This document shows, piece after piece, positions 4,160 through 45,656 of a stretch of DNA of 48,649 nucleotides. The notes below the pieces were generated by a model, which saw only the letters and a list, made by a program, of their open reading frames with translations, was not told where the DNA came from and did no database searches. Position 1 is the first letter of the stretch. Each line of letters begins with the position of its first letter. A program made the position numbers and the translations under genes. The stretch is from Hydrurus foetidus (Eukaryota). The stretch lies in NCBI GenBank assembly GCA_900617105.1, contig UYFQ01000184.1:1-48649 (forward strand). The letters are read 5' to 3'.

Positions 4160-4707
4160 CGTTAAATGACTTACGTCTTGACAATTTTAATGGCGAGAGT
4201 CGCCAAAAAAATTTGCAAGGGCTTCGCCTCGTGCCGTTTGGATGAAAATCAAACAGGCGATTAGGCGAAGCAAAGTAAGTCAAGTGTGTTCTGGGCGGAT
4301 GAATGAATCAATCCGCTTAAAATGAGCCGGGATTGGGAGACTTGCTCGACCAAACACGAGAACAGCGTGGAAGACGAAGCTATCCACGGACGTCTATCAA
4401 GCCAAGCTTGAAGCGAAACTGGGCAGAAGTTAACGGAGTTAACTCTGCACAATGGTATGGGATTGCTGAGATGAAACTCAAGCAACCACAAGATAGTCAA
4501 GTATCGGGAGATTTCGAGTGACTAAATTTACGGCGACCAGACTTCGGAGACTTGCTCGCGACAGTAAGAATTGCTCGCAAACGAGAATTTCGAATAAAAT
4601 TCGAGATTCTCCACGCAGGGTAATCGGGAGAGTTAGGGCAGCAGGGTAGCGTAGAGGATGGTAGCTTAGAGTAGGAGAATAGGGTCTAAAGAAGAGAAAC
4701 TAAAGGA

Positions 4708-4719
4708 AGTAGATCTACT
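4708..4719 (-). promoter_or_regulatory. Palindrome AGTAGATCTACT at the PBS position of Gypsy A copy 1
   Basis: GTAGATCTAC (4709-4718) abuts the LTR end. Identical in copy 2. Function inferred. Confidence 0.7.
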
Positions 4720-4928
4720 GTGACCTTGGAAGGCAAAGCGAAGGGAGGTCTAAAGGCTAAAAGAAGCTTGTTAGTTAGGGATGCAACAGAAGGTACGCTA
4801 GTAACTTCTGCAAAGCAGCACAAACTAGCTAGTGACTGATAGTCGTGGCTGTGAACACGAAGGTACTAAGGTGGAAACAGCATCTAACCTAATCGCTGAA
4901 TGAGGTAGCAGACCCTGAGGGAGTCACA
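4719..4928 (-). repeat. 5' LTR of Gypsy A copy 1 (210 bp, TGTGAC...GTCACA)
   Basis: Reverse complement of the LTR at 12061-12272 with a few differences. Confidence 0.95.
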
Positions 4929-12060: not shown

Positions 12061-12272
12061 TGTGACTCCCTCAGGGTCTGCTACCTCATTCAGCCGATTA
12101 GGTTAGATGCTGTTTCCACCTTAGTACCTTCGTGTTCACAGCCACGACTATCAGTCACTAGCTAGTTTGTGCTGCTTTGCAGAAGTTACTAGCGTACCTT
12201 CTGTTGCATCCCTAACTAACAAGCTTCTTTTAGCCTTTAGACTTCCCTTCTCTCTAGCCCTCCAAGGTCACA
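12061..12272 (+). repeat. 5' LTR of Gypsy A copy 2
   Basis: TGTGAC...GTCACA, repeated at 20583-20789. Confidence 0.96.
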
Positions 12273-12283
12273 GTAGATCTACT
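12272..12283 (+). promoter_or_regulatory. Palindrome AGTAGATCTACT at the PBS position of Gypsy A copy 2
   Basis: GTAGATCTAC at 12273-12282 directly after the LTR CA. Absent after the 3' LTR. Function inferred. Confidence 0.7.
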
Positions 12284-12628
12284 TCCTTTAGTTTCTCTTC
12301 TTTAGACCCTATTCTCCTTCTTCTACGCTACCCTGCTGTCCTAACTCTCCCGACTACCCTGCGTGGAGAATCTCGAATTTTATTCGAAATTCTCGTTTAC
12401 GGGCAATTCTTACTGTCGCGAGCAAGTCTCCGAAGTCTGGTCGCCGTAAATTTAGTCACTCGGATTGAGATTTATCTCCCGATACTTGACTATCTTGTGG
12501 TTGCTTGACGATTGTACTTCGCCTAATCGACTGTTTGATTTTCATCCAAACGGCACGAGGCGAAGCCCTTGCAAATTTTTTTGGCGACTCTCGCTACTTA
12601 AAATTGTCAAGCAATAAGTCATTTAGCG

Positions 12629-15600
12629 ATGCCGTTATCCGATGACTCTTCGGAGATATCGCCGTCGCTCGCCGAATTCACTACTCAATTAGTTCCGGCA
12701 GCGACGACAGTTTCAAAAACTCAGTCGACACCAACAGCGCCGACAGCAGTAGCTGCGTCTGATGGAACTGATCGACCGGTATTCCCAGTAACAATACTGG
12801 GACCTACCAACAGTTCCAATCAGGCGCCGCCTAATCGTCATAACGACGACGATGACGACGTTCACACAACGCGACAACAAGACAATGTCACATTGCGTTC
12901 GTCAGACGCAAACCGTCAACAGACACGCCACAACAGCGACCCTGACCGGGATGATGACGACGGCGATACAAACCCTCGCTGCCGTATAGATTTACCCCCG
13001 CAACGATATCTCCGTCGTCAGGGCCTCGACAGTTACGACAATTCAACTCGTCGAAATAATCCCTTCGACGGAGATGCAACGGGCGACTATCCGCCTACTC
13101 CGAATCAACAGAGTGGTAGCGAAGACGGTGGTGACGTTAATCGTTACGATAACCGTCAACGCAACGATTCTAACCAGCGTCAACACAATGACGATAATCG
13201 AAACAACAACGATTATCGGCGTTTTAATGATGACAATCAAAGTCACAACGATAATCGTCGTAACTACGATGACACCAACCCTCCTAGGGACAACTGTAAT
13301 ACGGGCCCTTCATACCTTCATACGGTACAGAGCACCGTAACGACAACCGTCACGATAACGATGAACGTCAATATAACGATGATCGCCGCAACGACAATCA
13401 ACGTCAGAGCGATAATCGTCGTTATAACGACAATTACCGTCAGAATGACGACAGTCATGAGTACGACAACGAGGGACGTCGCGGGTACAACACCCAATTC
13501 AATGACGATAACAGACGTCAATATGACGATCGACGCAACAGCGACAATCGTCGCAACGACGACAACCCACGTCATAATGACGGGCGTCGCGATAACGATA
13601 ATCGTCAACAAGACGACAACCCTAATAGGGATAATCGTAGAGACACCTTCCAACGTCCCAACGATAACCCCCAAAGGGATAATCGTAATTACGAGGATTC
13701 TCGTCGTAATGACAACCCCAACAGGGGGAATTATTCTACGAACACTCGCAATTTCGATAATTTTCGCGACGACAACAACGACAACTTCCGTCAGGGAGAT
13801 AACAACCCCAATAGGAGCAGTCGTCGAGAACCCCCACAGGGTTACGACGACAGTCCCCCCAGGGACAATCACCAAGGGGACAATCGTCGCCAACATGATA
13901 CATCGAACAGGGGCAATCGTAATACTGACAGGCGTCAGTACAACGAAAATCAATATGAGGACGAACGTGCGACTGAGAGTCGTACGACTCCACGTGCGTC
14001 GATACGCGTGACCGACAACTTTAGATTGCTCGAGAGCCGCGCTATGCGCATCCCCGAAGATGTGGGGACAATAACCCGCACAGCGGATGCTCCTCGCAAA
14101 CGCGCATTACCCCCGCAAGAGGGTCCAACGTCACGCAAGCGACAAGCCTCTCCACCAGGGTCACCGGAACGTCCTACGTACGTACGTACGTTTACTGGTG
14201 ACACTGATTATAACCCCCAACCCCAACGAGTCACCCAGGAAATTCTACGGGAAATTCGGGTTCCTACCCCACTCCCCCTGGATCCTCCAGACATCGTGGT
14301 GCTACCCGCAACCGATCGCATCATCGATTACGAGCTGCAAAGAGCAGCGTTCCGAGCTGCAGGGGGCGGTCTCGACCCCAATGCAGCGCAACCGGTACGA
14401 CCGCCGATACCACGGTATATACATGATTGTACGTCACCGATCAACGTACCCGCGGTACAGGTTGCCACACCCAGTGCGACCCCTACAGCGCTTGTTGTGG
14501 GTGGACGTGCTGTGGATGATGGCTGCAAACGGTACTTTACGTTCTCAACGTGAATGCATCCGGCATTATTGGATAGGATGCAGCGCGGGAGATTTATGAG
14601 CACTCCCAGCGCTGGACCAACAACTATGATGTTGGTCAAGTCATCTCGACTAAAGCAGTCAGATGCATTGATGATCAGATCCATACGGATCAAGATTATC
14701 CATACTCCGAGGAGACATGTAAAGCGTGGCTCCAAACCTTGACGGTCCCTCAAGTTGCGCACTTAGTCCTGCGATACTTTCGCGCGGAAACGCAACTCGG
14801 GCAGTCACTGGCGGAGCATTTCTCAGAAGTACATCTCGCCTTCTGTTACAACAAAAGGGAGATTGAGATGCGCTGCATGACGCAGTTTCGTGAGGTGGTT
14901 GAGAATCATGTACAAGTACATGGCACACTCAGCACCTCCGACCATGCCGCACTCACTCTTATTTTAGAGAAAAAGATACCTCTTAACGGTGCCATCACCG
15001 CCAAATACAAAGAGCATAAACGCGTCAACCCGCATGACGTGGACGATTGGTGTGAGTTGCCACGGGTTGGCACGAAGTCGGGAGGACATATCGTGGATGG
15101 CCAAATTAAGATGGAAAGGTTTGGTTAGTAAATTTGATTTAAGAATTAGAAACTGGCACGGAGGCCACAAAGCATAAAGTCATGTTGCACATCATTCCTA
15201 CCTGCCGTACAATGATAAGATCTCAATCGTCATGCGCATGCAATTTGACTGGCTCTCGTAGATTTGCATCTACGTTGTTGTATAGGCGAGATAGTAGCTA
15301 CTCAACTGTAAATATGACGTTTGTACTAAAAGCTAGACTTTTGGTACGAAGTACCGGATAAATACTATACAGCTGTGGTTATTATGGTGTAACAATGGCA
15401 ATATACGTGATACGAATTGGCATTGAGGAAGCGACTTGGTGCACATTGCACACCAATAACAATCTACAAAATGTGTATACTTATGATATCCTATCATGCT
15501 AATTGTTGCTTATACAAATGGTAATATACAGCTATAACTAGCACTTATCGCTGTTATATACCGACAATTGGGAATTCGCGATGCGTCGCTTTTTCTCCCA

Positions 15601-18600
15601 AGTCAATGCGGTACGACAACTCCAGCTACACGTAGCGGCTTTCAGGGACCCCAACGACATTTACTGTTACCCCGCGAGACGAAACCCGTATGGGTTATCT
15701 CTCACGACTAACCCCAAAACACTGTTGGTTGGTGCGGCACTCCCAGCATTACCACCGCTGGCACTGCCAACAACACCATTCCCGCAGCGTAACTCGTGTG
15801 GGCACATGGACCATCTGCTTAAGAGTTGCCCACACATGTGGATGGTGGACTCGAACACCAACCACAATGTCCCGTGGGACCACTCCAACATGGGTCGCAC
15901 GTGGGCACAGTACGGTCATGCGACCTATCCTCTCCACGACCGCATCCCTGGTCTGGGCCGCTTCAAAATTCAGATACCCCGTCGTGAAACAAACTTCACT
16001 GACGAGGTACTGAATAAAGCCCATCCCCCAGGAGGTGGTCATAAGAAAAAATACCAAGGGAACCCCAATCATGGGGGGAACTTTAACCGGAGCGCCACCA
16101 ACAAACCGCGATACGGTTCGGGTGGACAAAACACCACGTTGGCCAACAACACCTCCATCAACGCAGCCAACAGTGGCCTACCACTCCCAGCCCCATACGA
16201 TGGTACGTTAACTCATACCACGGTGGTGGATGCATTGGTAGTGGCGATACATGCGGCTAACACATGTAGCCCTACCGATACACCACCATCGTTATGTATA
16301 CTCGACTCTGATGTACTCATAACTGATGCATTGGAGGTCTCTACCCCTTCCAATACAGTATCGGATAACACTAACAATGTTCTCCCCACATGTCTTCACG
16401 TGTTACAGCCACCCCATACACCCCTACCGCTAATCTCGGAGGTGCTGGCGGCGTGCCATAATCAGACCGACATGTCGGAAATACTGCTCATAGGTACGTT
16501 ACCGTCTGACTCGATTGTAGCAGCGGTACACTCAACAGTTCCTAATGAACTTCTTTCATTATTGATGTTCAAGGATGAACGAAGAACCTTGCAGGGACAC
16601 GCCCCCACCACAGTCGCGTCAGCACCCCAGTCCACGGGACTTAGTCTTACAGCGCACGCGCTCTTAGACACGGGTAGCATGGCCGGCGATTTTGTTTCCA
16701 AATCACTGCTTGTCTCACTCGATGCACTTGCTCATTGTTATGTGTCTTCAACCGCACTTAACGTTTGTAGCGGTCTCGATGGCACTTGCTATAGGTGTAA
16801 TACCCTAGTCGATTTAGGCCTTACTTTTCTCGATGATAGTAATATCAAGCACACTATCTATATCACTTTTAGTGCAAATCCTTTTGCACAATTGGATCTG
16901 ATCATCGGACGCAAGTCCCTGAATCAACACAATTTGTTTTTACTGACACCGACTAACGTATGGGCTTTGACCCTACGTTAGTCGAAACGTCACATAGCCC
17001 GGATGACATCGGTCTACTTCCCTTAAGGGCAGAGTCCGACATCGGTACAGATCCACATACCGACGTCTGTTGTCATCATAGTGACGCTGTCGGATCGCGT
17101 AGTCCTTGTACACAGTGTCGCCTGATTACCGACACTGCTGACAATGGAGACGAAGGTCACTCGAGCACCCACCGTATTCCAACAGTGGGAGAAGAGTGGG
17201 GTCCATCTGCGCTATGGACGGGCAGTGGTCTTAACCGCCCCCCTTCTGAGACCGGGACGAGAGTGAACACAGTAACACTTAACGCCGCGAGCGTTTTGCC
17301 GTGCGGAATCAATCTCAATGGAGATGAGATTGATGATGACAAAACGGATGCGTTCGGTCCGTTTCTTTCTGCATTGATGAAAGACCCTACCCCAACAGGT
17401 AGGGCGAACGATGTCATCTCGACAATCACCTTTGGTGGGTCGGACGCTCTGCAAACAGCATGCAGAGCATTATGTACCGAATTTATTGACATCTTTCAAG
17501 ATGAGGTGGCCCGTGAACCGGCCCGTATACCTCCTTTTGACATTGATCATAAGGCGGCACAATGGGAAGTACCTGGTAACAGGACCCCGCTCCGCCCCCA
17601 ATCCTCACAGAAGGAGGAGGCGATTCACAATAACCTTCAGGATCTGATACGGATCGGGGTGGTTGAGAAGTCTAATGCGGTATACTACAGTCACCCTGTA
17701 GTAGTACAGAAGTCACCCGGACAATACCGTGTATGTATTGACTTCCGGCCACTTAATAACTGTACGGAGTCGGCCAGTTGGCCACTCCCCAACATTCCAG
17801 CAATGTTTGAACGCATTGGCGCTCGTCAACCTGACATCTTTGGAGTTATGGACTTAACGTCCGGCTACCATCAAGCACCCCTTACGGCATCAGCCAAAAT
17901 CCTGACTGCATTCATATGCTTCTCTGGAATTTATCAATTCACTCGATTGCCTTTCGGCCTCAAACGTGCCCCATCATACTTCCAGGAGATGATGGCCACG
18001 GTTGTCCTTGCGGGCCTTTTATATGTAACATGTGAGATGTATCTCGATGATTGCATTGTATTTGGTAATGGACCTGACGAGTTTCTGCAGAGACTTCGTG
18101 ATGTCTTCATCCGTTTTCGAGAAAAGAATTTATTCTTGAAAGCTAAGAAATGTAAGTTCGGAGTTACACGCCTCGAATACGTCGGACGTGTGATCTCCAA
18201 AGAGGGGTTATCTATGTCGGCTGAGAAAATAAAATCTGTTTTAGATTTTCCTCGCCCTAAAACCGTCACTGCCCTTAGGGGATTTCTCGGTTTGGCGAAC
18301 TATTTTAGAGGTTTCGTACCAAACCACTCCAACATAGTGGCACCGTTACATAAAATGACGGTGTCTACAACTCATAAACATTCCAGAGTAACCTGGAATG
18401 CTGAAACCATTAAAGCGTTTCAAGACATTAGGCAGGCAATCTCTCAATGCCCCCTGATGCACTTCATTGATAATGTATCACCAATACATTTATACACCGA
18501 CGCATCTGATTATGGTGTAGGCGGTGTATTGTTCCAAAAGGTTGGAGATGAGATGAAACCCATTTCATTTGTGAGTAAGTCACTCACCTTCTCACAGTTG

Positions 18601-21720: not shown

Positions 21721-21894
21721 CGTTTCTTACGCACCGAAAACTAAAACCAAAAACCCACGAGCTTTCATTTTCGGGGAGTTTCGGAATGAGAAAACTGTGA
21801 AAACAGGCCTGTTTTCACAGTTTTCTCATTCCGAAACTCCCCGAAAATGAAAGCTCGTGGGTTTTTGGTTTTAGTTTTCGGTGCGTAAGAAACG
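21721..21894. repeat. Perfect spacerless 174-bp palindrome
   Basis: Two 87-bp arms centred on AGG|CCT at 21807/21808. Confidence 0.95.
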
Positions 21895-23210: not shown

Positions 23211-23226
23211 TTACGTACGGTCACAC

Positions 23227-23647
23227 TGTTCCGAAAACGGTGAAAACACTTTCGTTTCTCGCTGGTGACTGATGCAGTCAACCTCAGTAGCGAGAGATTG
23301 TGTTTGATTTGATCCTTGTCTTTGTAATATTTAACTTGAGCCTCCTTTAATACCAGCCTCTGACAGTATAGGCGCGCTTTCCTATACTCTCTGGAGACTG
23401 TGCAAAAGGAGTGGTCGGCAACGATGTCTAATTACGTGACAAAGAAATATAACAGTTGCAGTGAAAAGCACTAACTATTTCTTCGGACGAAACCGCGTAT
23501 TCGCTATGTCAATACTGAATCGTGAAGATACACTCAAGTTGTAGTTTCGTACGCTAAAACTATAGATCGTTGAGCTCATCACTTCAACCGGTATCACTAT
23601 AGTGTTATACGGTATTTGCATACATGTGAATCTGTCATTCCCAAACA
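23227..23647 (-). repeat. 3' LTR of Copia
   Basis: TG...CA. Short PPT AGGGGTA precedes it on the minus strand. Confidence 0.97.
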
Positions 23648-23859
23648 TACCCCTTGATGAGGTCATACAGTTCTCATAGTGACGTTTCAGAATTGAAGAA
23701 CGTTCTTCCGTTAATTCAAAACTGAAAACTCTGCCGTTTCAGAATTTCATGGCATGAAAAATGAAAAGTGTTGACGCAGAATGTCGAAGTCGAATCGCGA
23801 ACATCTCTCGAACTCTGCAGAACATTTCTCGAACATCATCTATCTCTCCTGTGATTAGA

Positions 23860-26800
23860 TCACAATTTCATTCCTCGGGAGCCGGTGACTAGGTCTCGCA
23901 GCTTGACAAACGTTGTTCCATGGAGGGGCTTCGTCAAGAGATCCGCTACCATCTCTCCAGTCGGCAGGTACTCAATGCTGATCTCTTTCTCTTCCAAGTA
24001 ATGTTGAATGAAAAAATATCTGATCTTCACATGGCGTGTTCGCTCACTTGTTGACCTCCCCTTATTGGCCAGGCATATTGTCGACTTGTTGTCCTGATAT
24101 ACTGTCGCTGGTCCAAGGCGCAGTCCTTGGTGTAGCAGGAATTCTCTCGTCCAGAGAATCTGAGAAAGCGCATCGGACACCCCGACCAGTTCAGCCTCAG
24201 TGGAAGATCTAGTAACGATCTTTTGCTTGCCACTCTTGACATAAATGGTAGCCTCACCGATCATGATCACAATTCCTGTCACCGACTTCATGTCTTCATA
24301 TATTCCAAAGGATGCATCCACATAAGCCTTTACTTCACAAGTCTCTCCAACTTTTAATATCATCTTCTGATCCCTTGTGAACAACAGGTACGACAGGATC
24401 CGGGCGAGTTTCTTAAAGTCGTCTTCATTCGGAGAAAGAACCCTTGTCGCACAGAAGGACACTGCAGTCAGGATATCTCCTCGTGTCCGCTTCGCAAGGT
24501 AGTGTAATTCCATTACGCAGGAATGAAATATCTGCTGAAGTTTATGACTGAGTTTTGGGCAGCTTTCGTTGCTTCGAAACAACATCTCTGTCGCTGGAGT
24601 CATTGCTTTCTTCGACACATCGTACTTGTTCAGAATATTGCTGACGTAACCTTCCATGCTTAAACTCACTTCTCCAGGTGTTCGGAAGTCCCAATTAATT
24701 CCGAGGAAGTTGTGTTCCTGGCCACTTCTCACTGTGACTCCTCCATATCGCTCCCGTAAAGCATTTGCAACCAACTCCAGATCGGATTGCTTCGAGGAGG
24801 TAAGCAGGAGGTCATCGACGTAGACAAGAATTGTATTTGTCTTTCCATCACTAACTTTGTTATATACACATTTATCATAGGGGTTCCTGCAGTACCCAAG
24901 ACCCTCTAGTGTGCTCGACAGTTCCTCGTACCAGAGCACAGCTGATTGAATACAGCCGTAGAGAGCTTTCTGCAGCTGTACAAGGATGGTCCCATTATTG
25001 CGACGGTAAGCTTTGTATTCCTCACAAACCTCGCACAACATTTCAGATACTTCGCTTGATAACATCATTCTCACTTCTGGACCTTTCATTGTTGCGTTCA
25101 AGTAAGCCGCCTTATGGTCCAGAGTCATGACGAAATCTCCGCGATGAGCAGCAATTGCTGCTTGGGCAAAAACAGCTGTCAGGGAGACAGTTGGCGATGA
25201 GGTCTCCTGGTCTGAGTACAATGATCGGTCCTGCCGATGGCCACCGGCGACTAGCCGTGCTTTCATTCTGTCAAAGATTCCGCTTGGAAGCTTCTTTTCA
25301 GTAAGGAACATTTTTGACGGAATGGCTCCATGGGCATGATCTGATGGGCTGAGCCCTTTGAATACTCTCTTCGATACGCAGTGAGTAAGTTCCAGAATTA
25401 CTGCGTCCCGAACGATGGCTTCTCCGTACGTTGCTGTGGCTGCCTTGATGGTAAGTGCTGCGTACACGTGTTGCACTTTTGTCGACTTGCGTAGATTGTA
25501 ACCTTTGTTCAGCTCGTTTCTCATCTGTGCAACCTCCGATGCTATATCCCTAACGGCAAGCTTCTCATTATCAGCTGTATTATCAACTTCATTTTGTTCT
25601 ACTACTCTCGTTGCCAATTCTTGTGTAATCTGTTCCCTGTCTTCCGCAGGGTCGGTGGCGGGAGCGTCATCCAAGTCAGACTCTTCTATTGGGATGGTAA
25701 ATTCTGCTGGATCCAACTCGGTCTCTGCTGTTGGATTGGTCGATTCATCTAGATTCAAATCGTCTGGAGGATCATTGGCAGATACCAGGACGGGCAGTGG
25801 TGATGTCACAGTGGAGTTATCCTCTGCTACCCCTCGATTTGGGTCTAGCGCATAGGGGCTGTTCGGATCCGGCAGATGTGGTTCTGGATCGTTCTGCTCG
25901 TTTTGGTGGAGTGGGGGAGTGCCTGCAAGGCGGCGCAGTCTTTCGATTGCTTCGTTTGTCAGCGGTGCAGGGCGAAATGTATCGCCGGTTACCTCTGCCA
26001 GAGTGCCGAGGTTGAAGCAACGGTGGGTTCCTTTCAGGTTGCGTGTGGTACCCAGCCATATGCAATAGTCGGCACGTGGCGCAGCGGTGTTGGTGTGAGT
26101 TCCTGGGGCACGCTGTAAGAATCCTGATGTCCCGAAGGCATGCGGGGCGTCAATTTTATAGCTCGGAGTTCTGCCTCGGAAGGCAGTGTATGCTGGCAGG
26201 TGTCCCGGTGCGTTGGATTTAGGGACCATGTTGGCTGTGTGCACGACAAATGCGATGAGGGCAGGAGCAAGCCTTAACGGGAGTGGAAACGGTAAGCTGA
26301 ATAGCGTGCTCCTTGCTTTATTCTTCACGTGTCGAATAGCTGCCTCAGCATGTGGTGTATGCGAGCCATGTCCTAAAATATTCAATTGAGCACCTAATTC
26401 CTCTACTGATGTTCGTGCTGATTTGATTGCACCTTCACCGTCCGAAGTAACTGTTCTTATATGAAATCCCTTTGCCTTGTACTGATTTATATGCAGGAGT
26501 AAGGCTTTACCGGCCTTGGACCTAGAACCTTCGGAGGGCTTGAATCCAGTTGTCTGTTCATGTCCTGAGCCTAAATGGGTCACCATTATCAGCCCCAAGA
26601 GTACTGAGATGCTCAGAAAGAAGACGTTGCCCAGGAAGAAGAACAAGTCGACTTGGAGTTCTTGAGCAACTGACTCGTGTACGGGGATTTGATCGTCTTC
26701 TCGGCTTTTTGTGGTGCGTTGAGTACCCTGCCCCAGCTGGTTTGCCGCTGGCGTCCCATAGATATTCTGGGCATTTACAAGGTCAGCCCTCGTAAAATCG

Positions 26801-28518
26801 ATATCTTTAATGCATCCTCTTTGAACCATCTCAGCTGCTCCTTTGTAACTGACGTATCCCATGCGTGTAATGAATTCGTAGGCATGTCGAGCGCTCGCCA
26901 ACTGCCGAGCGGAATATTTGGCTGGACTGTTTACTACGTAAACTGGAAGAGATGCGACCATGTCCATCACGTAATGACCGTTTACGCAATGGAAGGTAAG
27001 TTTTGGTCCAGTGGATGCAACGGCAACGAATGTATCGGTGTCTTCGTCGTAATATACCGAGTGCGTTTCTTTCAATTTACTGTAGCTGATGATGTTGGCA
27101 CTCATGCGTGGACTGTAGTAGCCTTTAATGCCAATGTCTTTTATGGTAGCTTCCTCTGTGATTCTAACTCTATTCCCCGTGATTCCTTGGATTGTCACAG
27201 GCGATTGGGAATCTTGGATGTCAATCGCTATCACGGGGCTGTGAAGTAAGTGGATTCCGGATTGGGTATCCAACAAGATGACGGTGTCATCTTCTCTTGT
27301 TGCTGCAGAGAGGAGTACGTGGCTGACTACATCAGTTGCGATCGATTGGACCGCGGAGTAGTAGATGATCTCATCTTCAGCGAGTCCAGCAAAGTGGACT
27401 TGTTTGACTGGACACTTATTGGACCGATGGCCCTTTTTGCCGCATGTCCAACAGACAATGTTGTCTGGGGTAATTGAAGGTGGGCCTTTGCCTTCTGTCT
27501 CGGTACCTTCGGTTCTCGGTTTCGCAGGAACGCTTCGACCGCGTCCTCTGCCACCGCGACCTCGTCCGGATCTACCCCCGCGCCCTCGTCCTCTGCCACC
27601 ATCGATGTTCAGGTCGTCTGCTCTTGATAGGTAAACACTTTCCAAACCGTTTCCTGCATTTCCTCTGAATCGAATTATCTGAGTATCTTTTATCTCCTTC
27701 CACAGTGTCGAGCTGGCTTCTGGAAGGTCTGCGATACCTCGCCTTTCGTTGTCAAAGTAATCCTTTGTCAAGGATGCGTATCTGGCCATGTCCAGACGAT
27801 TCAAGATGCCGATGACGAGTTCATCTTCGGGAATCACTGGAAGGCCGACAGCAGACCGCTCGAGCTGATGGTCCTCCACTCTCTTCCGGAACGCGAAGCT
27901 TGTTTCGTGAGGCTGCATCCGCAGAGTGGACCAGAGTTGGCTGACTCTTTCTCTGTCTTGTCCAGGGTTTCCACTTTGCCGCGCGATGTGAGTCGCTCGA
28001 ATCCTGGCGATGAGGTAAAGGAGGTCCCTTGTGTTGTATGCTTCTTCCCAGTCTTCATCGTCCTTTATTTCACACCTTGATGATTCACTCAATTGAGCAT
28101 AGACTAGGGCAAATACCGCTTTCTTTTCTTCTACAATCTTCTTTGCATCCGTTTTATAATCTTTGCGGTCACTTATAGAACTTGCCAAAATCATTTTACC
28201 CAGGTTGCCGGTCGGAATGTTGTCTGGCATTTCTGGCTCTTCTTCTTCTGCCCCAAACTCGGGGGGTGTAGACCAGAAGGCGTAGCATATAGAGGGTTTA
28301 TAGCGGATGGCCACGTGTTCGCCCATTGTTTGTAAGAACTCTATGGGTTTGTTATCTTTGCCCGATGCCCCAAAGTTGAGGCTTGGCAGATCGGGGTCGC
28401 TACCCCTAAATCTAGGCTCTCGATCTACTCTTGTGTTGGTAGATGATGGGGACTGTCTTCCTCGACCGGCTCCCCTGCCTTGGCCTCTTTGGCCTCGACC
28501 GTGTCCGCGTCCAGACAT
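23860..28518 (-). CDS. Copia gag-pol polyprotein (1552 aa)
   Basis: RGG tracts, CWTCGKKGHRSNKC, protease LLDTQS, integrase VDLFF/SDGEG/AEAAIR, RT YVDDLL, RNase H YVDASFG/SSTEAE/QDNKS/ADLLTKPL, in Copia order. Confidence 0.97.
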   Translation of the reverse strand: MSGRGHGRGQRGQGRGAGRGRQSPSSTNTRVDREPRFRGSDPDLPSLNFGASGKDNKPIEFLQTMGEHVAIRYKPSICYAFWSTPPEFGAEEEEPEMPDNIPTGNLGKMILASSISDRKDYKTDAKKIVEEKKAVFALVYAQLSESSRCEIKDDEDWEEAYNTRDLLYLIARIRATHIARQSGNPGQDRERVSQLWSTLRMQPHETSFAFRKRVEDHQLERSAVGLPVIPEDELVIGILNRLDMARYASLTKDYFDNERRGIADLPEASSTLWKEIKDTQIIRFRGNAGNGLESVYLSRADDLNIDGGRGRGRGGRSGRGRGGRGRGRSVPAKPRTEGTETEGKGPPSITPDNIVCWTCGKKGHRSNKCPVKQVHFAGLAEDEIIYYSAVQSIATDVVSHVLLSAATREDDTVILLDTQSGIHLLHSPVIAIDIQDSQSPVTIQGITGNRVRITEEATIKDIGIKGYYSPRMSANIISYSKLKETHSVYYDEDTDTFVAVASTGPKLTFHCVNGHYVMDMVASLPVYVVNSPAKYSARQLASARHAYEFITRMGYVSYKGAAEMVQRGCIKDIDFTRADLVNAQNIYGTPAANQLGQGTQRTTKSREDDQIPVHESVAQELQVDLFFFLGNVFFLSISVLLGLIMVTHLGSGHEQTTGFKPSEGSRSKAGKALLLHINQYKAKGFHIRTVTSDGEGAIKSARTSVEELGAQLNILGHGSHTPHAEAAIRHVKNKARSTLFSLPFPLPLRLAPALIAFVVHTANMVPKSNAPGHLPAYTAFRGRTPSYKIDAPHAFGTSGFLQRAPGTHTNTAAPRADYCIWLGTTRNLKGTHRCFNLGTLAEVTGDTFRPAPLTNEAIERLRRLAGTPPLHQNEQNDPEPHLPDPNSPYALDPNRGVAEDNSTVTSPLPVLVSANDPPDDLNLDESTNPTAETELDPAEFTIPIEESDLDDAPATDPAEDREQITQELATRVVEQNEVDNTADNEKLAVRDIASEVAQMRNELNKGYNLRKSTKVQHVYAALTIKAATATYGEAIVRDAVILELTHCVSKRVFKGLSPSDHAHGAIPSKMFLTEKKLPSGIFDRMKARLVAGGHRQDRSLYSDQETSSPTVSLTAVFAQAAIAAHRGDFVMTLDHKAAYLNATMKGPEVRMMLSSEVSEMLCEVCEEYKAYRRNNGTILVQLQKALYGCIQSAVLWYEELSSTLEGLGYCRNPYDKCVYNKVSDGKTNTILVYVDDLLLTSSKQSDLELVANALRERYGGVTVRSGQEHNFLGINWDFRTPGEVSLSMEGYVSNILNKYDVSKKAMTPATEMLFRSNESCPKLSHKLQQIFHSCVMELHYLAKRTRGDILTAVSFCATRVLSPNEDDFKKLARILSYLLFTRDQKMILKVGETCEVKAYVDASFGIYEDMKSVTGIVIMIGEATIYVKSGKQKIVTRSSTEAELVGVSDALSQILWTREFLLHQGLRLGPATVYQDNKSTICLANKGRSTSERTRHVKIRYFFIQHYLEEKEISIEYLPTGEMVADLLTKPLHGTTFVKLRDLVTGSRGMKL

Positions 28519-28606
28519 CGGTTCTCCGGATCAGATGCTCTCTGAGTCCGTCCAGATACTCTCTGGATTAGCTAGCTTAAGTAGCCTTTTGCTTCTGCTA
28601 GCAATG

Positions 28607-28617
28607 TATTTCTTTGT
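28607..28617 (-). promoter_or_regulatory. Non-tRNA PBS complementary to the element's own LTR (28829-28839)
   Basis: + strand TATTTCTTTGT (28607-28617) is the exact reverse complement of ACAAAGAAATA (28829-28839). Confidence 0.7.
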
Positions 28618-29037
28618 GTTCCGAAAACGGTGAAAACACTTTCGTTTCTCGCTGGTGACTGATGCAGTCAACCTCAGTAGCGAGAGATTGTGTTTGATTT
28701 GATCCTTGTCTTTGTAATATTTAACTTGAGCCTCCTTTAATACCAGCCTCTGACAGTATAGGCGCGCTTTCCTATACTCTCTGGAGACTGTGCAAAAGGA
28801 GTGGTCGGCAACGATGTCTAATTACGTGACAAAGAAATATAACAGTTGCAGTGAAAAGCACTAACTATTTCTTCGGACGAAACCGCGTATTCGCTATGTC
28901 AATACTGAATCGTGAAGATACACTCAAGTTGTAGTTTCGTACGCTAAAACTATAGATCGTTGAGCTCATCACTTCAACCGGTATCACTATAGTGTTATAC
29001 GGTATTTGCATACATGTGAATCTGTCATTCCCAAACA
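28617..29037 (-). repeat. 5' LTR of Copia
   Basis: Identical to 23227-23647. Confidence 0.97.
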
Positions 29038-29232
29038 CACACGAGTCGAGATCACAGTAGCGGAACAGAACTGTGGGCTGCTGCTGCTGCCGATGCTCAT
29101 CAACTATTTAACTCAGAAATCAACTACTGTTCTGTCAGGAGCTGTTTTCTGACCGCCAATCTCTTAACACAGTTCGTTACTGCGGAGAAGAGCCGATTTC
29201 GACATTTGTGTCGTATTCTTTCGCGAGATCCC

Positions 29233-31700
29233 ATGAAACTGTTTCCGGTGTATGGCATTAACTTGGTGCCGTTGTATGTCCTACTGGTTGCTGAAATGGT
29301 ACACTCTTTTGCTTTGAAGGCACAATCACGACATGATCACAGATTTTTTTTAAAGAGTCGAAATTTTGGCCAGAAAGGAAATTCTCCATTAACGATGTCA
29401 AGCAATGCTGGTGGTACTCTTTGGTGGACGGAGGGACTGAAATTTGGTTGTACTGCATGTGGGCGTTGCTGTCAAAATAAGGGAGAAGTATGGTTGAATG
29501 GCGATGAATTCGCTGATTTGGCACTGTACATCTCAGAATCTCCACTTCAATTACTGGAGAGGTACAGTGAGAAAGTTACATCTGGCTGGGTGAAGGTGAA
29601 AACGGAAGTAAACCATGATCCGCTAATCTCGAGTCAATGTATATTTCTTGGTGATGATGGGAAACAGTGCTCCATATATGATGCGCGACCAACTCAATGT
29701 AGGACCTACCCTTTCTGGCCAAGTCTTTTATCAAATCGTGAAAGCTGGAGGAATGAATCAGTTCAGTCAGTAGAATCACGACGTGATGGAGATTTGTTAT
29801 TGAAGCAATATGATAGGATATCATCTGAAGAACGGCACTCAGGACGTGATGATTGTTCGTCGAAAGAATCGACTGATGAAAGATTTGAAGATTTACCAAT
29901 CGAAAAATCTGCTACGAAACTTGCGATAGACGAGGACGGCGGAGTCGCTGCACTTTATTGGACAGCAGGCACTGGAGGCTGCGAGGGCGTAGAGGATATC
30001 AACGCTCATTTAATCGACTCCTCCGTTGTCCACAATAATCTGGAGCTATACAACGCTTACACGAAATCCTTCCCATTCAGGGACGTGGGGAACGATTCGC
30101 AGAAGCTTCTCGTACGGACTGCCACAGTCATTGTAAGCACATTACCTCCACCGCTAGAACAACTTATACAGAGCAGGACATTCTCACACATTTCACCACC
30201 GTGGTAATCATGCGTACTATCAATTTTTCTCTGACCACCAAAAGGATGTGATCAAGAGTTGCCGATCCTGGATGGAGAGCTCCCTCTCCCTTCCGAACAT
30301 CACAGCAATGATTGGCACAGGAAGAATAAAGAACAGGTGATGGAGGGATGCTAGTATCTGAGGCTTATCGCGAGGATGCGAAAACAGATAAACAAGTTTT
30401 AGGAATGAATCACCCACCCGACTTACTCACTGAATCAAGTCACAACATTTAAATGCATTTTCTGCCAGTAAACACTATTTGACACTCTTTCCCAATTCTC
30501 TGATATCGTTGTGTGCACTGCATTCGAGAGTTGTTATTGCCATTGTTCCTCGTCACACTTTATCCTGCTCTACATAAGGGTTCTCAAACCATTTATTACT
30601 CCGTGTAACATGTCCCACTGTTGGTCGCAGGGTTTGTCTGAGTGACGATGGAAGGGTGATCATCGAACAGCTCAGATACGAGGTGCCTGCGATTCCTCTT
30701 TCTCCATCTTTCTCATGCGCATTCCCTTGAGCCTGAACCGTTATTTCCGTTCCTGCCATTTGACCGTTTGTTCACAGATCCTGGACCTGAAAACCACCGG
30801 ACAAGGATCAGGATCAGGACCTGAAAACTCTCCCTCCACTGTGCTCGTTATTCCAAACGCTTTCCGATCTCTAAAGGTTCGCACAGCTAAGAACACAAAA
30901 ACCTCCGAACAAATGTTGTGAACATATCGTGATTCTCTTCTTTACCTCAACTCTACCGACACTTCTCGTAGGACTTCAAAGAATATTCTCGGAACATCCT
31001 AGAGAACATTCTCCCACTGATAGAGCGGAGTCTGTCGCTTTCGGAAAGAGACCATTACATCGACTACAACCCTGTCCCTTCCAAGCATATATCCATCCCC
31101 ATCCCCTCGTCATCATCAACATCGCCATCAGCAGTTAGATTAGGGGTGACGTCCATTAGTTGGAGAGATGTGACCGCTGCCGCTGCCAGCACCATGACAA
31201 CAGTAACCACTGCTGACCACCCTCCGATACGAGACTCTTCCTCCTCCTCACCTTTTCCCGATCTGCCTCTCCCTCCTGTGCCACGTCCCCCTCAAGCACA
31301 ACTATCTGAAGGACCAGTCCTACCCACTAGGGCAGTTTCGCAATACGCACTGGATTCCTCAGCAGGGTCCAAAGTCCTCATTTCCTCCCAACCCGAGTCA
31401 CGTTCTGCATCACCGCTGCCGACAGCTGCCAAGGTGATTAAGATGTATCAAATGATCACGATGGTTGAACCAGCTCTCGTCAATTCCAGTTGACAGCTCT
31501 TTATTTATGATGGCATATTAGCGTATTCGAGAAACAAGAAATCGACTAATACTAGAGCAATTCTATTTTTTCTCCATCAGCTGCTGTTCTTCCACCCATC
31601 GGCCTCGTCTGACGGACTGCTGACAGCTCTGCACATGGGTGTGGAGTGGGAGAAAGGACAAAGCGTCCCATACCCCTTCATACTGATACAGATGGGGTGA
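29233..31700 (+). CDS. Multi-exon gene: YkgJ-family CxxCxxCC cysteine-cluster protein with signal/transit-like presequence and probable DUF1415-like C-terminus
   Basis: Exon 1 (29233-30132, donor GTAAG) has WWTEGLKFGCTACGRCC, CIFL...CSIYDARPTQCRTYPFWP and GGCEG. Later candidate exons give DVIKSCRSWMES, TVLVIPNAF, DFKEY, KLLFFHP and ASPYPFILI. Downstream exon structure is tentative. Confidence 0.75.
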
Positions 31701-37423: not shown

Positions 37424-38019
37424 ATTGGGCGTCGAAGATTAAAAATTTCGATTCTCGCGGAATACAATTGTTTAAAAAAGCTACCGCATGCAGAGACGCT
37501 GGTTCTGCTGCGACTCACATGGCATGTCAGCCGTTGTCAGTTTCATCTCCTCAGGCAAATTATCATGTCATCGCATCTCTCTCAGAAAAGTCCGGGGATA
37601 ATCTTCTGCGATCTACAATCTGCAGTCTGCAATCATAGGGTCTGACAGATCGATCCAACGTTTCAAAATTCCAAAACGATAGGGCTGGTGGCCGGGCCGA
37701 GCTCAGCTCGGCCAAGCATGCTCGGCCACTGGCCGAAGGACTTGGCCGAGGATGCTGTCATTTGCTCGGCCGGCCATCGTGGCCGAACTGATCCTCATTT
37801 GCTCGGCCGGCCGAGGTCACTTAGGCTACAATTCACCGCAACGTCTAAACGGAGTCGGTGTAGTATAACGTAGATTCTGACCGTGTGCTACAATTTGACT
37901 TAATTCACCGTTCTCCGGAATATATCTTACGTTATAATTCAAAATTCGAAAATTTGAATAATTTCTCGACTTTTACCGACCGTTACATCATTTCTAAGCA
38001 ACATATGCTATAGCTTCTA

Positions 38020-39513
38020 GTGACTTCTGATGCACAAATTTTTGAAGTCGGTTCGCTCCTCAGGATGATTTATTCTCTCAGTCAGTTTTCTGCCATGATG
38101 ATGATCATGCTAAGGGTCATCAAGAGGCGCAAAGTTGCAAAGTCAAGTGCAAAGCCACGGCGTAGTCCTACGTCTGTTCCCCGATTGAAGGCAATCGATT
38201 ATTGGTACTCTCCATGGGGTCAGCTTCTGAGGCGTTTTGCTGCAATTGATGGTGGACCATCAATTGCATCAAGAGACGGCAAATTGTTCAGGCGCCGATT
38301 TCGAGTCCCATACAGCGTATATCGCAATTTGGTGCAGAAATGCCACGAGAAGAACCTCTTCGGTGAGAATTCTTCTAAGGAAAAGGATATTACTGGGAGA
38401 AGTATTTGTCCTGTTGAAATCAAATTATTGTCGGTACTTCGAGTACTGGGCCGGAATTGGAATTTTGATGACATCGCTGAGGCAACATTCATGGGGGAGT
38501 CGACTGCAAGGAGAATGTTCCACACATTTTGTTCTAATTTTGTGGAACACTTTTATTCGGTGTTTGTTTACAGACCAACTGGTGACAAACTATCAAGAGT
38601 CATGAAAGTTTTTGAGCAAATGGGATTACCGGGCTGTATTGGCTCCACAGACTGTGTTCATTTAAAATGGGATCGGTGTCCTGTTGGACTTGCTCAACTA
38701 TGCTCTGGTAAGGAGGGATTTCCTACTCTTGCATATTCTTGCACAGTAGATCATCACCATAGGATTTTAGCATCTACTACTAGTTATTGGGGTGCAAAAA
38801 ATGATAAAACGATAGTGCGTGGAGATACTTATATTACAGATGTGAGAGAAAAAAAAGTACACGATGATGTAGAGTTTAATGTTTATGTAAATGGTGTATT
38901 GAAACCAATGAAAGGTGTGTATTATATTTGTGACGGTGGATATCATAAGTGGACATGTATGATAAATCCTATGAAACATACATCTGTTAGAAGTGATAGA
39001 TTGTGGTCGGAATGGCTTGAATCTACAAGAAAAGATGTAGAATGTACGTTTGGTAGTCTTAAAAGTAGATGGAGGTTTTTGAGAAATGGTATTGTGTTAC
39101 AAGATCAAAATTCTATAGATAATGTATTTTTTACTTGTTGTATATTGCATAATATGATATTGGAGTGTGATGGATTAGATTGTAGATGGGAGAAGGAAGT
39201 TGATTGGGAAACATTAAACCCCCAACCAACAAATTCTGATGAAGGATTTGATGAAGACACAGAGACTGTAATTAGTAATCAACAAATTTTAATTACTCGA
39301 CGTGTTACAGAATGGGTATCACCAAGAGAAAACACTGTAGAGGAGGACTTCGAGTTGGGAAATGAATTTGTTGAAGAGTGGGATAATGACTTTAATGCTA
39401 AACGTAGAATACTGGTAGATCATTTTCAATATGCTTATAATTTAGGTTTAGTCAAGTGGCCTAGACAATTTACTGAGCAAAAAAAGGCCATATACAATAA
39501 AGGGAAAGTGTAA
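38020..39513 (+). CDS. PIF/Harbinger DDE transposase (start codon uncertain)
   Basis: FRRRFRVP, GCIGSTDCVH, YYICDGGY, RKDVECTFGSLKSRWRFL, CCILHNMI. Confidence 0.95.
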   Translation: MTSDAQIFEVGSLLRMIYSLSQFSAMMMIMLRVIKRRKVAKSSAKPRRSPTSVPRLKAIDYWYSPWGQLLRRFAAIDGGPSIASRDGKLFRRRFRVPYSVYRNLVQKCHEKNLFGENSSKEKDITGRSICPVEIKLLSVLRVLGRNWNFDDIAEATFMGESTARRMFHTFCSNFVEHFYSVFVYRPTGDKLSRVMKVFEQMGLPGCIGSTDCVHLKWDRCPVGLAQLCSGKEGFPTLAYSCTVDHHHRILASTTSYWGAKNDKTIVRGDTYITDVREKKVHDDVEFNVYVNGVLKPMKGVYYICDGGYHKWTCMINPMKHTSVRSDRLWSEWLESTRKDVECTFGSLKSRWRFLRNGIVLQDQNSIDNVFFTCCILHNMILECDGLDCRWEKEVDWETLNPQPTNSDEGFDEDTETVISNQQILITRRVTEWVSPRENTVEEDFELGNEFVEEWDNDFNAKRRILVDHFQYAYNLGLVKWPRQFTEQKKAIYNKGKV

Positions 39514-39632
39514 AAACATAATCACAGTATTGCTTGCTAATAATATTGTTAACTCATACCATGCTGTAGGATATCATTAACTTTCAATTAATAATATAAT
39601 TTCAATTTTGCGAAAACTAAAAGTTTTTTTTC

Positions 39633-39859
39633 AGTGGAGTGTCTTGTGCTGAGGAGTGCAGCAAGCAGTGCAGTGCAGTTAGCAGTGCAGTGGAGTGTCT
39701 TGTGCTGAGGAGTGCAGCTAGCAGTGCAGTGGAGTGTCTTGTGCTGAGGAGTGCGGCAAGCAGTGCAGTTCAGTGCAGCTAGCAGTGCAGTGGAGTGTCT
39801 TGTGCTGAGGAGTGCGGCAAGCAGTGCAGTGCAGTTGAGCTGAGTAGTGTCTTGTGCTG
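39633..39859. repeat. Imperfect tandem repeat with a core unit of about 39 bp
   Basis: AGTGGAGTGTCTTGTGCTGAGGAGTGC(A/G)GC(A/T)AGCAGTGC in 4-5 copies with variable CAGTG expansions. Confidence 0.9.
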
Positions 39860-40086
39860 TTTGAAAATTAAAATATATTTTTGGAGCTAAAGCTGATTTG
39901 TTAATTATAATATGAGATGGATTCGTTAAAGAGAATATATATATCTAAAAAAAATAGAAAAAAAAAATAGAAAAAAATTAAAATATCGAAAAAAAAGGTC
40001 GTTGACGTTGACAAAAAAAACCGCAGGGGAATACTCAATCGAGTACCGAGAGGAAGTTACAAAACAGTGCAATAGAAATGTAACAT

Positions 40087-40448
40087 CGAGTGGAGTGGAG
40101 GAGTGTCTTAGAAGGGAGAGAGCACCGAGTGGAGTGGAGGAGTGTCTTAGAAGGGAGAGAGCACCGAGTGGAGTGGAGGGGTGTCTTAGAAGGGAGAGAG
40201 CACCGAGTGGAGTGGAGGAGTGTCTTAGAAGGGAGAGAGCACCGAGTGGAGTGGAGGAGTGTCTTAGAAGGGAGAGAGCACCGAGTGGAGTGGAGGGGTG
40301 TCTTAGAAGGGAGAGAGCACCGAGTGGAGTGGAGGAGTGTCTTAGAAGGGAGAGAGCACCGAGTGGAGTGGAGGAGTGTCTTAGAAGGGAGAGAGCACCG
40401 AGTGGAGTGGAGGAGTGTCTTAGAAGGGAGAGAGCACCGAGTGGAGTG
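40087..40448. repeat. 39-bp minisatellite, about 9.3 copies
   Basis: CGAGTGGAGTGGAGG(A/G)GTGTCTTAGAAGGGAGAGAGCAC. Units 3 and 6 carry the G variant. Confidence 0.97.
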
Positions 40449-40518
40449 TGCTGAGGAGTGCAGCTAGCAGTGCAGTGGAGTGTCTTGTGCTGAGGAGGAT
40501 GGCGCAGCCTGCAGGCTC

Positions 40519-41751
40519 CTAAATTGCGACAAAATATTCATCTTCGTATACATCTTCGTCATATTCCCACCTTGTCTCCGACTCTTTACGGTTCGAGTCA
40601 ATGTTGCAAGGGAGAAGAAAGTCGCATTCCGGCTCCGCCTGTGTAATTATGCTAGAAGACGAGGTCGCTAATGATGAAGCAGGTGTTGAGTAAGATAGTG
40701 CAACAACATCATTGGTTAGTTTGTCATCAAAGAGTTTGATTCGCTTTGGATCACCGGTGGGTTTGTCTGGTTTGACCTCTTCTATTGGCCGCTTTAAAAA
40801 GTTGTACAATTCCCTCATGTTCGCTGACTTCTCGGTATCAGGAATGTCGGACATCTGTCTGCCCATCTCAACTAGGGCCGTTAGTCGCTCTCTCTCTGAG
40901 GTCCACTGTAAGTTTGCGCGTATTTTGGTCTGCTCCACAATGCTCTGTGACAAAATAGACAATTCGGTTTCGCCCTCAACAACCGCGCAAGTAGATTCTG
41001 TTTTCAAGTTTGCCAACCGACGTTGGTTGCGACCGCCTGTTGCCGCCATAGTCTCTCTCATTTCATCGGCAGGAATAGCTTTTTCGGCTTCCTTTGATCT
41101 CAATGGTCCGCTACCTGGGGCAGGAGTTTTGAGAATTTGGATGCATCGGGCCCTTCGTGAGAGACATGAGATTCTGTCAGTAACGGGTGAGAAATGATTG
41201 GTCAATTAGATTTACCTTCCAGAGGGTAAGCCCACGTAGCGGAAGGCAAGCCATTCCTTGAGCTGCCAATTAGGATCAAATTTGCGAATGATGTACTCGA
41301 CATTCCGCTTCGCGGCCTGTTTCTTCTTGTCTTCCTCGTTGCGCTTCCACGCAGCTTCCTTGCAGACGGCAAGAGCGTCACCTAGTTGAGTTCCTGAGGC
41401 AAACGCAACTGGATCCTTCCAAGCAGGATTCAGGACGTTAATGATGAGAGTCACCGCCTCCTTGGCCTTTCGCAACATTTGCACGCCAGTATCCTTGTCA
41501 ACCAATGTTGAAAGGACTTCGGGCGTCGCGTCCTTTATTGGTATGTATCTATAATTGTCGTAGATCTCCTTTACCCAGTCCGCGGCTCTCACTTTCAGAG
41601 ACTGTTCAATTTGAGGAACACTCTGCTTCCCTCCGTTGGTGACAACGTCATTCCATGCGAGGAGGAGAAGAAGTGTGTATGCTTCAACCAATCCTCTTGT
41701 CGATCTAACCATACGAGCAGTAACTTCCTCCGACATTCTGTGGCTGTGCAA
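40519..41751 (-). CDS. Harbinger accessory protein (two exons, 42-bp intron 41174-41215)
   Basis: GTAAAT...TACTGACAG intron joins ORFs 41212..41751 and 40519..41205 in frame. Convergent with the transposase inside the TIRs. Myb/SANT identity not confirmed. Confidence 0.7.
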
Positions 41752-43072: not shown

Positions 43073-45656
43073 TCAAAGATTTAGTATTGCATTCATAGCA
43101 GACTCGTCCTCGCTGTCATAATCTAGAAAATTATTCATAGCTTGAACAATGCTCAAATTCTCATCAATTACTGAAGTATCGCTATAGTTCGTTGTCCCGA
43201 TTGGAGTAATTTTCATTGTACCGCTATTTTTGTGCTTTATGAAAGGTAAAAAATTAATGACAGTGGGATCATCATGCAATTCTTGCAAACATCCAGTACT
43301 TATAAATGATCTATTAATTCCATCAGTGAATTTCTTTTCTTTGAAGCCATTAGCAAACAAATTAAATAAATCTTGAATTCCCTCTAACATATCAGGTTTG
43401 GGAGGCTCAAACTCAAGAACGTTGCGTTCTGCAGCAGGTTTTAATGACTCTAAGTGATGAAGCTCAGCAAATTTTTGAAAGCATGCAACAATGCGTGATC
43501 CTCGGAGCTTTCTACTGTGAGCTTTAAGAGGACCATTCACTACTAAATCTAAGACTTGCAGTACACCAGTCATGTTAGGGGGTAAGCAAGCAACATGCAC
43601 ATGTAGACTCTTTATGACAGAATCAACTAATGCTGTTTTATGGCATCCACAGTTATCAAACCATATCAATAACTTTCCTAATCTTTCTTTCAATGGTGCT
43701 ACAATGGTTTCAAGCCACATTATCATTCTAACAGTGTCATTCCAAGCCTTAAACTGGCTAGTTATGACTGCACCAGTCTCATCATTGATAATGTAATAAC
43801 ATTTATGAATGGCTGTAACATCTCCTATAGTCAACTCTTTCTCCCACAATACTAACTTCCACCCATCACTAACACCAAATCCGTCATTTTTATTGTACAA
43901 AGTTTTAATCACTTTCATACCTGATTGATCAGGTCTGTCAAGTGAACTGACAGTGTGTTTGATGATGATAAAGAGTGGCGCGAAAACACCGGAACCAAAG
44001 ACAGCAACAACTGCTGTGATACGTAGTTTCGCATTGGGGACACCGATATTCTGTGCCCTATGTTGGTCCCCCGGAACGTACATGTACTCCGGTCCGATGG
44101 CGTACGTAAAAGCCGTCTCGTCCATGTTCAATATATTGTCGGGTCCATATCCGAACTCTCTTATCAAATTTTGTCCAATGCTCATAATTGCTGCAATTTC
44201 TTCTATGGATGGAATCTTCTTATCATCGGTTGTTATTTTTCTCCGTCTTAGATTTGCTCGGTTCAGGAAACCTCGTACCCAGGCTGAACTGAATTTCAGA
44301 TCACTTATACCCGATTCATCCTCATAATGGTATAATTGTTGCACGGATCTTGCAGCCTCAATTATAACAGCGTAAGAATAAACAACACTAACCAAGATGC
44401 GTGTTTCACTTATTTCATCTCCACCTTCATCCTGCAGCATTAAACATTTTTGAATAATTGAATTTAGATTGATTAACTAAAATAAATGTCAAGTGAAATA
44501 AAAAACAAATAAAGATGACATACTTATGAATATGTCAAATGAAACAGCAACATAAATTTACCGTTTTTGTCTCATGTTCACAGATCATCAATTTACCCCA
44601 GACTGATGCTTCAAAATTCGAATTTATTTTGTGTCCCGTTTTTTTTAACACTTTTCTCCTATTACGGTTCCACCTTTCTATTGATGAAGGGACCAACTCA
44701 GAGAAGCCTGCTAAGGAGCTCAGTACATCTTTAGTTATCAAACTGGCGTGAACGTTGATTTCCGCGTGGTGTTGGCCATCAATTTCCAAGAACACTTCGC
44801 GAGTAATGTCGAATATCTTAAGCACCGCATCTTTCTCCTCGGAGCTGAACGTTATGTACTTTTTCGGTAATGCAGATACTGATGTGACGACTCTTACGTC
44901 GTTGGAAACCTTCTCATACGTTGGTTCAAAATCGTCGTCAATTTCCCTCCCAGTAAATATAGCTTTGCAGACTGAGTCGTATGGATTTCTTGTTTCTTTA
45001 ATTGCAGCAATTAGATATCCCAATGGATCTTCATTATTTACGCAAAGTTGACTTGACACCATTTTTATGACTTTTTTACCGCAATTACTCAGTTGTCTAC
45101 CGGCTAATTCATTGCTGCACTTTCTCCTTTTGTGATGAACGATGTCCGGCGTCTTTTGGATTATCGGTGAGACGATCGGTGGAGGCCTGCACGTAGGAAG
45201 CTGTCTCTGCCAAAGTACAGCACCAATCTCAGATAGTGATGAATATTGTGCTACTGATCCCTTCTGCCTCATGAAGTAATGCGCCTTTGTCGTCACTTTC
45301 AACATAATCTCTGAATTCGTGAGAAGTTCTTGATCACTCTGGAAGAATACTATATCCCATCCAATTTCAGCCTCTGGAAGATCCATGAACTCTGCAACAG
45401 AAGGTATCCCTTTACAACCCATTTGAATCATAGTATGTCCCAGCTTACGAATAGAATTTTTGAACAGATGAAATCCCTGATGCAACGCTAAGGGATTGAC
45501 TGCAAAATCCGGCGATATACTATACTCCGAGTTATTTACTTCAACAGACAAGTCATTCGGCGAAAGTTGACCTAACCCTAGCGTTGCTACTATCGGAAGT
45601 AGAACGATGACAATTGCAGCAGTGTACGCACAATACTCTCTCGCTAAAGATTCCAT
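43073..45656 (-). CDS. pogo-like DDE_1 transposase, DD35D (exons 45656-44562 and 44431-43073, about 817 aa)
   Basis: CENP-B-like LKFSSAWVRGFLNR, NMDETA, WFDNCGCH, LPPNMTGVLQVLD with 35 residues between the last two Asp. Phase-0 GT-AG intron at 44432-44561. Confidence 0.9.

Follow-up and report, generated by a model that had tools for sequence, protein, structure and literature searches.

Introduction

Self-priming of reverse transcription was established experimentally for the Gypsy element Tf1. The first 11 bases of its RNA pair with its primer-binding site (PBS); RNase H makes its cut between bases 11 and 12 (as described in the available portions of PMC7175516 and PMC4600332). A tRNA site is missing from Tf1 and Tf2 of Schizosaccharomyces pombe, from Tj1 and from the Tf1/sushi elements, and the sequence that follows their long terminal repeat (LTR) is complementary to the start of the RNA. 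The Copia element described here shows the latter complementarity, relative to its predicted RNA start, and its predicted primer, like that of Tf1, is 11 nt long; the predicted primers of its relatives span 10-19 nt, in contrast to the fixed 11 nt of Tf1. However, Tf1/sushi elements are Ty3/gypsy chromoviruses, whereas the present element matches RVT_2, carries its integrase before the reverse transcriptase (RT) and has no Chromo match, placing it outside that group. Self-priming by Tf1 is experimental and that of the present element is predicted from sequence.

Among Copia elements, self-priming has been suggested for Houba and Osr-1 of rice and is predicted throughout the TAR lineage of plants, on the criterion of an LTR complement of at least 10 bp that starts 0-5 bp after the 5' LTR (available text of PMC6317226). 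The element studied here has a complement of this kind; the TAR hosts are plants whereas the host here is probably a chrysophyte alga. In the literature searched, Copia self-priming is only predicted, for TAR. The statement on TAR, Houba and Osr-1 reportedly goes back to Capy 2005.

Two further Copia groups bear comparison. CoDiI and CoDiII (PMC2806351) are, like the present element, Copia elements of stramenopiles, but the CoDi hosts are diatoms and the host here is probably a chrysophyte. A preliminary description of this locus had allowed that self-priming might already have been suggested for CoDi elements. This suspicion was not borne out: the main text of PMC2806351 has no match for tRNA, Tf1, priming or primer binding. 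More broadly, the literature searched (outside Repbase and most subscription journals) held no report of self-priming for a diatom, chrysophyte or stramenopile Copia element. The second group, fungal GalEa, is Copia without a tRNA primer site, as the present element probably is too. According to the portions available of PMC5445492, GalEa carries a palindromic hairpin that includes the last A of the 5' LTR and has no LTR complement, whereas the element here has an LTR complement and no palindrome.

Results

An intact Copia element in a probable chrysophyte

The window, by which we mean the whole 48,649-nucleotide stretch of DNA analyzed, contains on its minus strand a Copia element that is intact, as the preliminary description had claimed. 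Its 5' LTR (28617-29037, minus strand) and 3' LTR (23227-23647, minus strand) are identical over 421 bp, beginning TGTTTGG and ending CGGAACA (TG...CA ends). They are flanked by a 5-bp target-site duplication, GTGTG, with its upstream copy at 29038-29042 and its downstream copy at 23222-23226 (both minus strand). A single gag-pol open reading frame (ORF; 23860-28518, minus strand) encodes 1552 amino acids counted from the first Met. The short polypurine tract AAGGGGTA lies at 23648-23655 (minus strand), a place mostly occupied by GGGGTG in relatives. The element is apparently young and recently inserted. Contigs from three runs have a 21-nt in-frame insertion at 25703 that is absent from the copy in the window.

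Pfam searches matched RVT_2 at residues 1067-1307 (E 5.7e-24) and zf-CCHC (E 3e-4), with the CCHC knuckle at residue 360. The RT carries YVDD, and RNase H spans residues 1405-1530 with its acidic residues present. We take LLDTQ at residue 419 to be the protease-like motif and D628, D697 and E729, located by eye and with a D-E spacing of 32, to be the acidic residues of the integrase, a domain for which the 1552-residue ORF had no Pfam match. The resulting order, Gag-PR-IN-RT-RH with a copia-type RT, is that of Copia. When the RT-RNase H part was compared with the Atlas, the top cluster (score 0.97) has Bacillariophyta as the commonest phylum among its 3 known members, and the next two clusters, with the same score, list Ascomycota. 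No named CoDi protein appeared among the matches listed, and a PDB search gave no useful match.

The host is probably a chrysophyte and not a diatom, judging from one gene: the organism-named matches nearest to a neighboring SNARE gene are from Mallomonas (56%) and Ochromonadaceae sp. CCMP2298 (51%), with closer matches unnamed. Most of the runs in which the Copia element occurs are metagenomes from freshwater, sediment, biofilm and air. In the region 29038-30207 (plus strand), the element lies head to head with a host ORF that encodes a CxxCxxCC domain and has a likely start codon about 190 bp away; the insertion may affect the promoter of this ORF.

Complementarity between the 5' LTR and the nucleotides that follow it

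Read on the element strand, CAAAGAAATA (28616-28607) comes directly after the final A of the 5' LTR (28617), and no TGG is present. These 10 nt are complementary to 28839-28830 inside the 5' LTR. The complement extends to 11 nt (TATTTCTTTGT, 28839-28829, located 198 nt from the LTR start) when T28829 is paired with the LTR's own terminal A, and in this form it agrees with the preliminary description. Among 31 cluster representatives (see below), 21 have a T just 3' of the paired stretch that could pair with the LTR's final A, suggesting that this 11th pair is common and not required. The primer sequence recurs at 23450-23440 in the identical 3' LTR.

The earlier chance estimate for the match, 421/4^11, was about eightfold too optimistic, because, when the LTR was shuffled 20,000 times with its dinucleotides preserved, the 10-mer lying outside the LTR turned up in 17 of the shuffles (0.00085); a match beyond chance for one locus nevertheless stands. 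The duplex at this locus is weak (-8.6 kcal/mol). In the predicted RNA, the helix is present in both the minimum-energy and centroid folds, the leader has a z of -5.7, and the mean pair probability of the helix is 0.94 (above 0.5 in 30 of the 31 representatives). There is no palindrome of at least 12 nt at 28617 and no tRNA within the window.

Sister copies of the element provided a second view of the pairing. Among the best-supported 40 of 72 sister-copy variants, none falls in either arm; the arms make up 22 of 361 nt, and the observation is weak taken alone. Three variants flanking the arms (28841, 28843 and 28606) improve either the initiator or the +1 pair. The neighboring pair between A28840 and 28606 is a mismatch in the window copy and a match in other copies: 28606 is G>A in 4 of 4 runs compared, giving a T on the element strand that would pair with A28840. 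We delimit the putative PBS as CAAAGAAATA(C) at 28606-28616 (minus strand), directly after the LTR, from its complementarity and its helix in the predicted folds.

Complementarity is conserved across the lineage

The preliminary description had proposed looking for compensatory changes in related families. A metagenome scan yielded 78 loci, 51 of which have a readable non-coding stretch from the ORF stop to the gag ATG; the other 27 were left out, being without a whole stop-to-ATG interval of 200-1400 nt. The relatives tested have 36-49% RT identity to the element and form a sister radiation. The closest subclade (50-88% identical proteins), which is its own branch with 99 support in a quick RT tree built without an outgroup, lies outside the count. 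Scanned viral and prokaryote genome contigs contained no relative. Every CA up to 250 nt before the gag ATG was treated as a possible LTR end, and the longest perfect upstream complement was measured. LTR ends in collapsed contigs were mostly inferred, while four LTR starts and the end of locus L065 were confirmed by true flanks. A terminal-inverted-repeat rule for finding LTR ends was discarded, having picked several ends wrongly and missed 7 LTR starts.

A perfect complement of at least 10 nt to the element's own LTR was found at a CA end in 35 of the 51 testable relatives. With the window included, 36 of the 52 sequences reached this length (range 10-33 nt), as did 31 of the 41 clusters formed from them. 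By comparison, in controls that were given an equally free choice of LTR end, cross-pairings with the LTR of another cluster reached at least 10 nt in 45 of 2628 cases (1.7%) and shuffles in 20 of 1560, and wrong-orientation controls did so in 2/52 (same strand), 3/52 (complement only) and 0/52 (reversed). An unbiased scan placed the start of the helix, in most loci by far, precisely on the base that follows the LTR end. The primer sites of the 31 cluster representatives all differ in their first 10 nt, none starts with TGG, and their A+T content is 70-100%. The expected compensatory series was thus recovered, with complementarity kept while the letters differ: the complementarity is real and is conserved through compensating changes across the lineage. 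The primer site of one relative, L008, has a 33-nt perfect complement in its LTR, far beyond the other relatives.

Sixteen of the 52 sequences missed the 10-nt cut-off. On re-inspection, eight of these had complements of 10-17 nt at a junction without CA or with a mis-called ATG; these were recognized after the fact and are uncounted, as is the 15 nt of L044, also among the misses. L033 and L075 reach 9 nt each, L026 is untestable, and L030, L035, L048 and L053, from two clusters, have only 7 nt at the likely LTR end. By eye, the pairing in L065 and L063 contains an internal mismatch. Among the loci left out, L002, L012, L013 and L064 have complements of 10-15 nt across contig ends, and the others are fragments or unclear.

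Several relatives have no CA at the junction of 5' LTR and primer site (CG, TA or a missing A: L044, L064 and L072; L001, L068 and L071; L023 and L037). In L044, the 5' junction (127-131) reads CCATC followed by the site, and the 3' LTR (7055-7065) has CCATCA before the flank. One possible reason is a flank that matches by chance, another a terminal A untemplated by the RNA.

The predicted RNA start lies at an initiator-like step

We then considered where the RNA would begin. In 24 of the 31 representatives the paired stretch has a CA step no more than one base from its 5' end (background 0.16), and in 1 of 31 at its 3' end. The same start, an A preceded by C, was seen in 8 of 8 further loci that were rescued later and stand outside the 24/31 count. 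In the start-site columns of 28 representatives, the A is preceded by C in 24 and before that by T in 14, with W at +3 in all 28. This (T)C-A-N-W pattern, with the start at the A, resembles stramenopile initiators, for which TCAHW has been described in diatoms (PMC4686930, available text) and YCAYTYY in an oomycete (PMC3599244, available text). The matching A in the window is 28840, where the base at -1 is T and not C; the sister-copy variants at 28841 and 28843 (phase unknown) would give CTC directly before this A.

The RNA start is thus likely to be A28840. The preliminary description had placed it at about 28839, which is near the predicted site; the C-A step in relatives and the sister-copy variants favor one base earlier. 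Because of this step and the variants at 28841, 28843 and 28606, the predicted self-primer is the 11-nt ATATTTCTTTG (28830-28840, minus strand), corresponding to the first 11 nt of the predicted RNA and composed of the PBS complement 28839-28830 and A28840. Predicted primers in 28 representatives measure 10-19 nt. No TATA-like column was found 40 nt upstream of the predicted starts in the representatives. We also considered a U3 hairpin that would hide the primer copy in the 3' LTR and rejected it as a general property: the window has an 8-nt upstream complement (28873-28864 region), but such a complement was found in only 2 of 31 representatives, which averaged 4.8 nt compared to 4.5 nt in cross controls.

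A model for self-priming and its alternatives

Collectively, we consider it highly probable that the element primes its own reverse transcription. In the model, transcription would start at A28840, and RNA bases 1-11 would fold back, across a loop of about 210 nt, onto the primer site after the LTR. By analogy with Tf1, the element's own RNase H would cut after G28830, and RT would extend the freed 3' end at G28830 into U5, so that the 11-nt 5' end of the RNA replaces a tRNA as primer. Given how LTR elements replicate in general, a near-perfect match between sites this variable is what one would expect if the primer were copied into the daughter's primer site in every round. The self-priming inferred in the preliminary description is strongly supported here; its remark that this is not the standard Copia mechanism is to be qualified by the precedent predicted for plant TAR elements (available text of PMC6317226).

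The helix could instead be a structural element that closes the 5' leader and acts in packaging, dimerization or translation control, with priming by a host RNA fragment or a protein. The strong predicted folding of the leader and the four relatives that keep only 7 nt are compatible with such a role. Moreover, fungal GalEa (PMC5445492, available text) and Skipper (PMC5006619) have neither a tRNA site nor an LTR complement, and because some LTR elements lack both, priming routes of unknown kind must exist. However, the pairing in most loci by far begins with the base next to the LTR, is almost always perfectly Watson-Crick and starts at an initiator-like step, and nothing else that looks like a conserved primer site follows the LTR. 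We regard this explanation as unlikely.

Priming by a host tRNA half or another small RNA, with the LTR match incidental, would be in keeping with the half-tRNA priming that is common in Copia (available text of PMC6317226). It is very improbable here: a conserved tRNA cannot explain AT-rich sites that differ in all 31 representatives and match their own LTR, while fitting so few of the LTRs of other clusters. Fainter still are the prospects for transcription starting downstream, near a TATA-like TATTAAA (28742-28736), which would put the LTR arm outside the RNA 5' end and make the match a DNA-level or historical one. That motif is present and one RNA contig ends at 28730, but contig ends do not mark starts and TATTAAA is altered in many sister copies (28739). 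The predicted upstream starts have no TATA-like column of their own either; in an oomycete, TATA boxes went undetected (PMC3599244, available text).

Self-priming, the reading we favor, is itself a known mechanism; new here are another Copia lineage and host in which it very likely operates, and the variable length of the primer. An intact Copia element with dozens of relatives constitutes a natural series of compensatory mutations with primers of 10-19 nt. If the model is right, one more Copia lineage has become independent of host tRNAs, and the way in which RNase H cuts an RNA-RNA duplex to free the primer could be studied with another enzyme, unrelated to the first, and with substrates that vary. 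LTR finders that require a tRNA site would be expected to undercount such elements in algal genomes. A broader proposal, to which we give about even chances, is that self-priming evolved in a large radiation of stramenopile Copia elements without shared origin with either Tf1 or TAR. Its primer would be free in length (9-19 nt), with the 5' end set by the host initiator and the 3' end by the LTR boundary, and the Copia RNase H would cut the RNA-RNA duplex by position, neither counting a fixed 11 nt nor reading the sequence.

Transcripts over the element

Assembled contigs from two metatranscriptomes cover parts of the Copia element, and the ends of these contigs do not mark transcript starts. 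One RNA contig spans the junction of LTR and PBS (28553-28730) and would have to extend another 110 nt to reach the predicted start. The spliced RNA contigs run antisense to the element. They skip 23968-24072, 24248-24387, 24499-24677, 25006-25102 and 27631-27705 (plus strand). These stretches have GT..AG ends and pyrimidine tracts when read antisense to the Copia ORF, and three of the joints are common to both metatranscriptomes, which come from different studies, and none was present in two other runs compared. All three frames of one exon contain stops, and the transcript thus looks like a multiply spliced non-coding antisense RNA.

Other repeats in the window

Three Gypsy-type elements in the window also lack a TGG site, and none has an LTR complement above 7 nt. 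Each has a perfect 12-nt palindrome that starts from the last A of the 5' LTR (11437-11426, minus strand; 12272-12283, plus strand; 4719-4708, minus strand), among 30 palindromes of at least 12 nt in the window. The palindrome is AATATCGATATT in one family and AGTAGATCTACT in the other two copies, the same geometry in different letters. This arrangement recalls the palindrome of fungal GalEa Copia elements (PMC5445492, available text) and is possibly another tRNA-free priming signal or a dimerization signal. One Gypsy family is present as two inverted copies (1-4895 and 12061-17381) that are 85-99% alike and have 18-nt tandem units in gag. Finally, the window contains a perfect 174-nt palindrome without a spacer at 21721-21894, as well as two DDE transposase-like ORFs and arrays of 17-22-nt and 39-nt repeats (38014-39513, 43073-44476 and 39609-40526).
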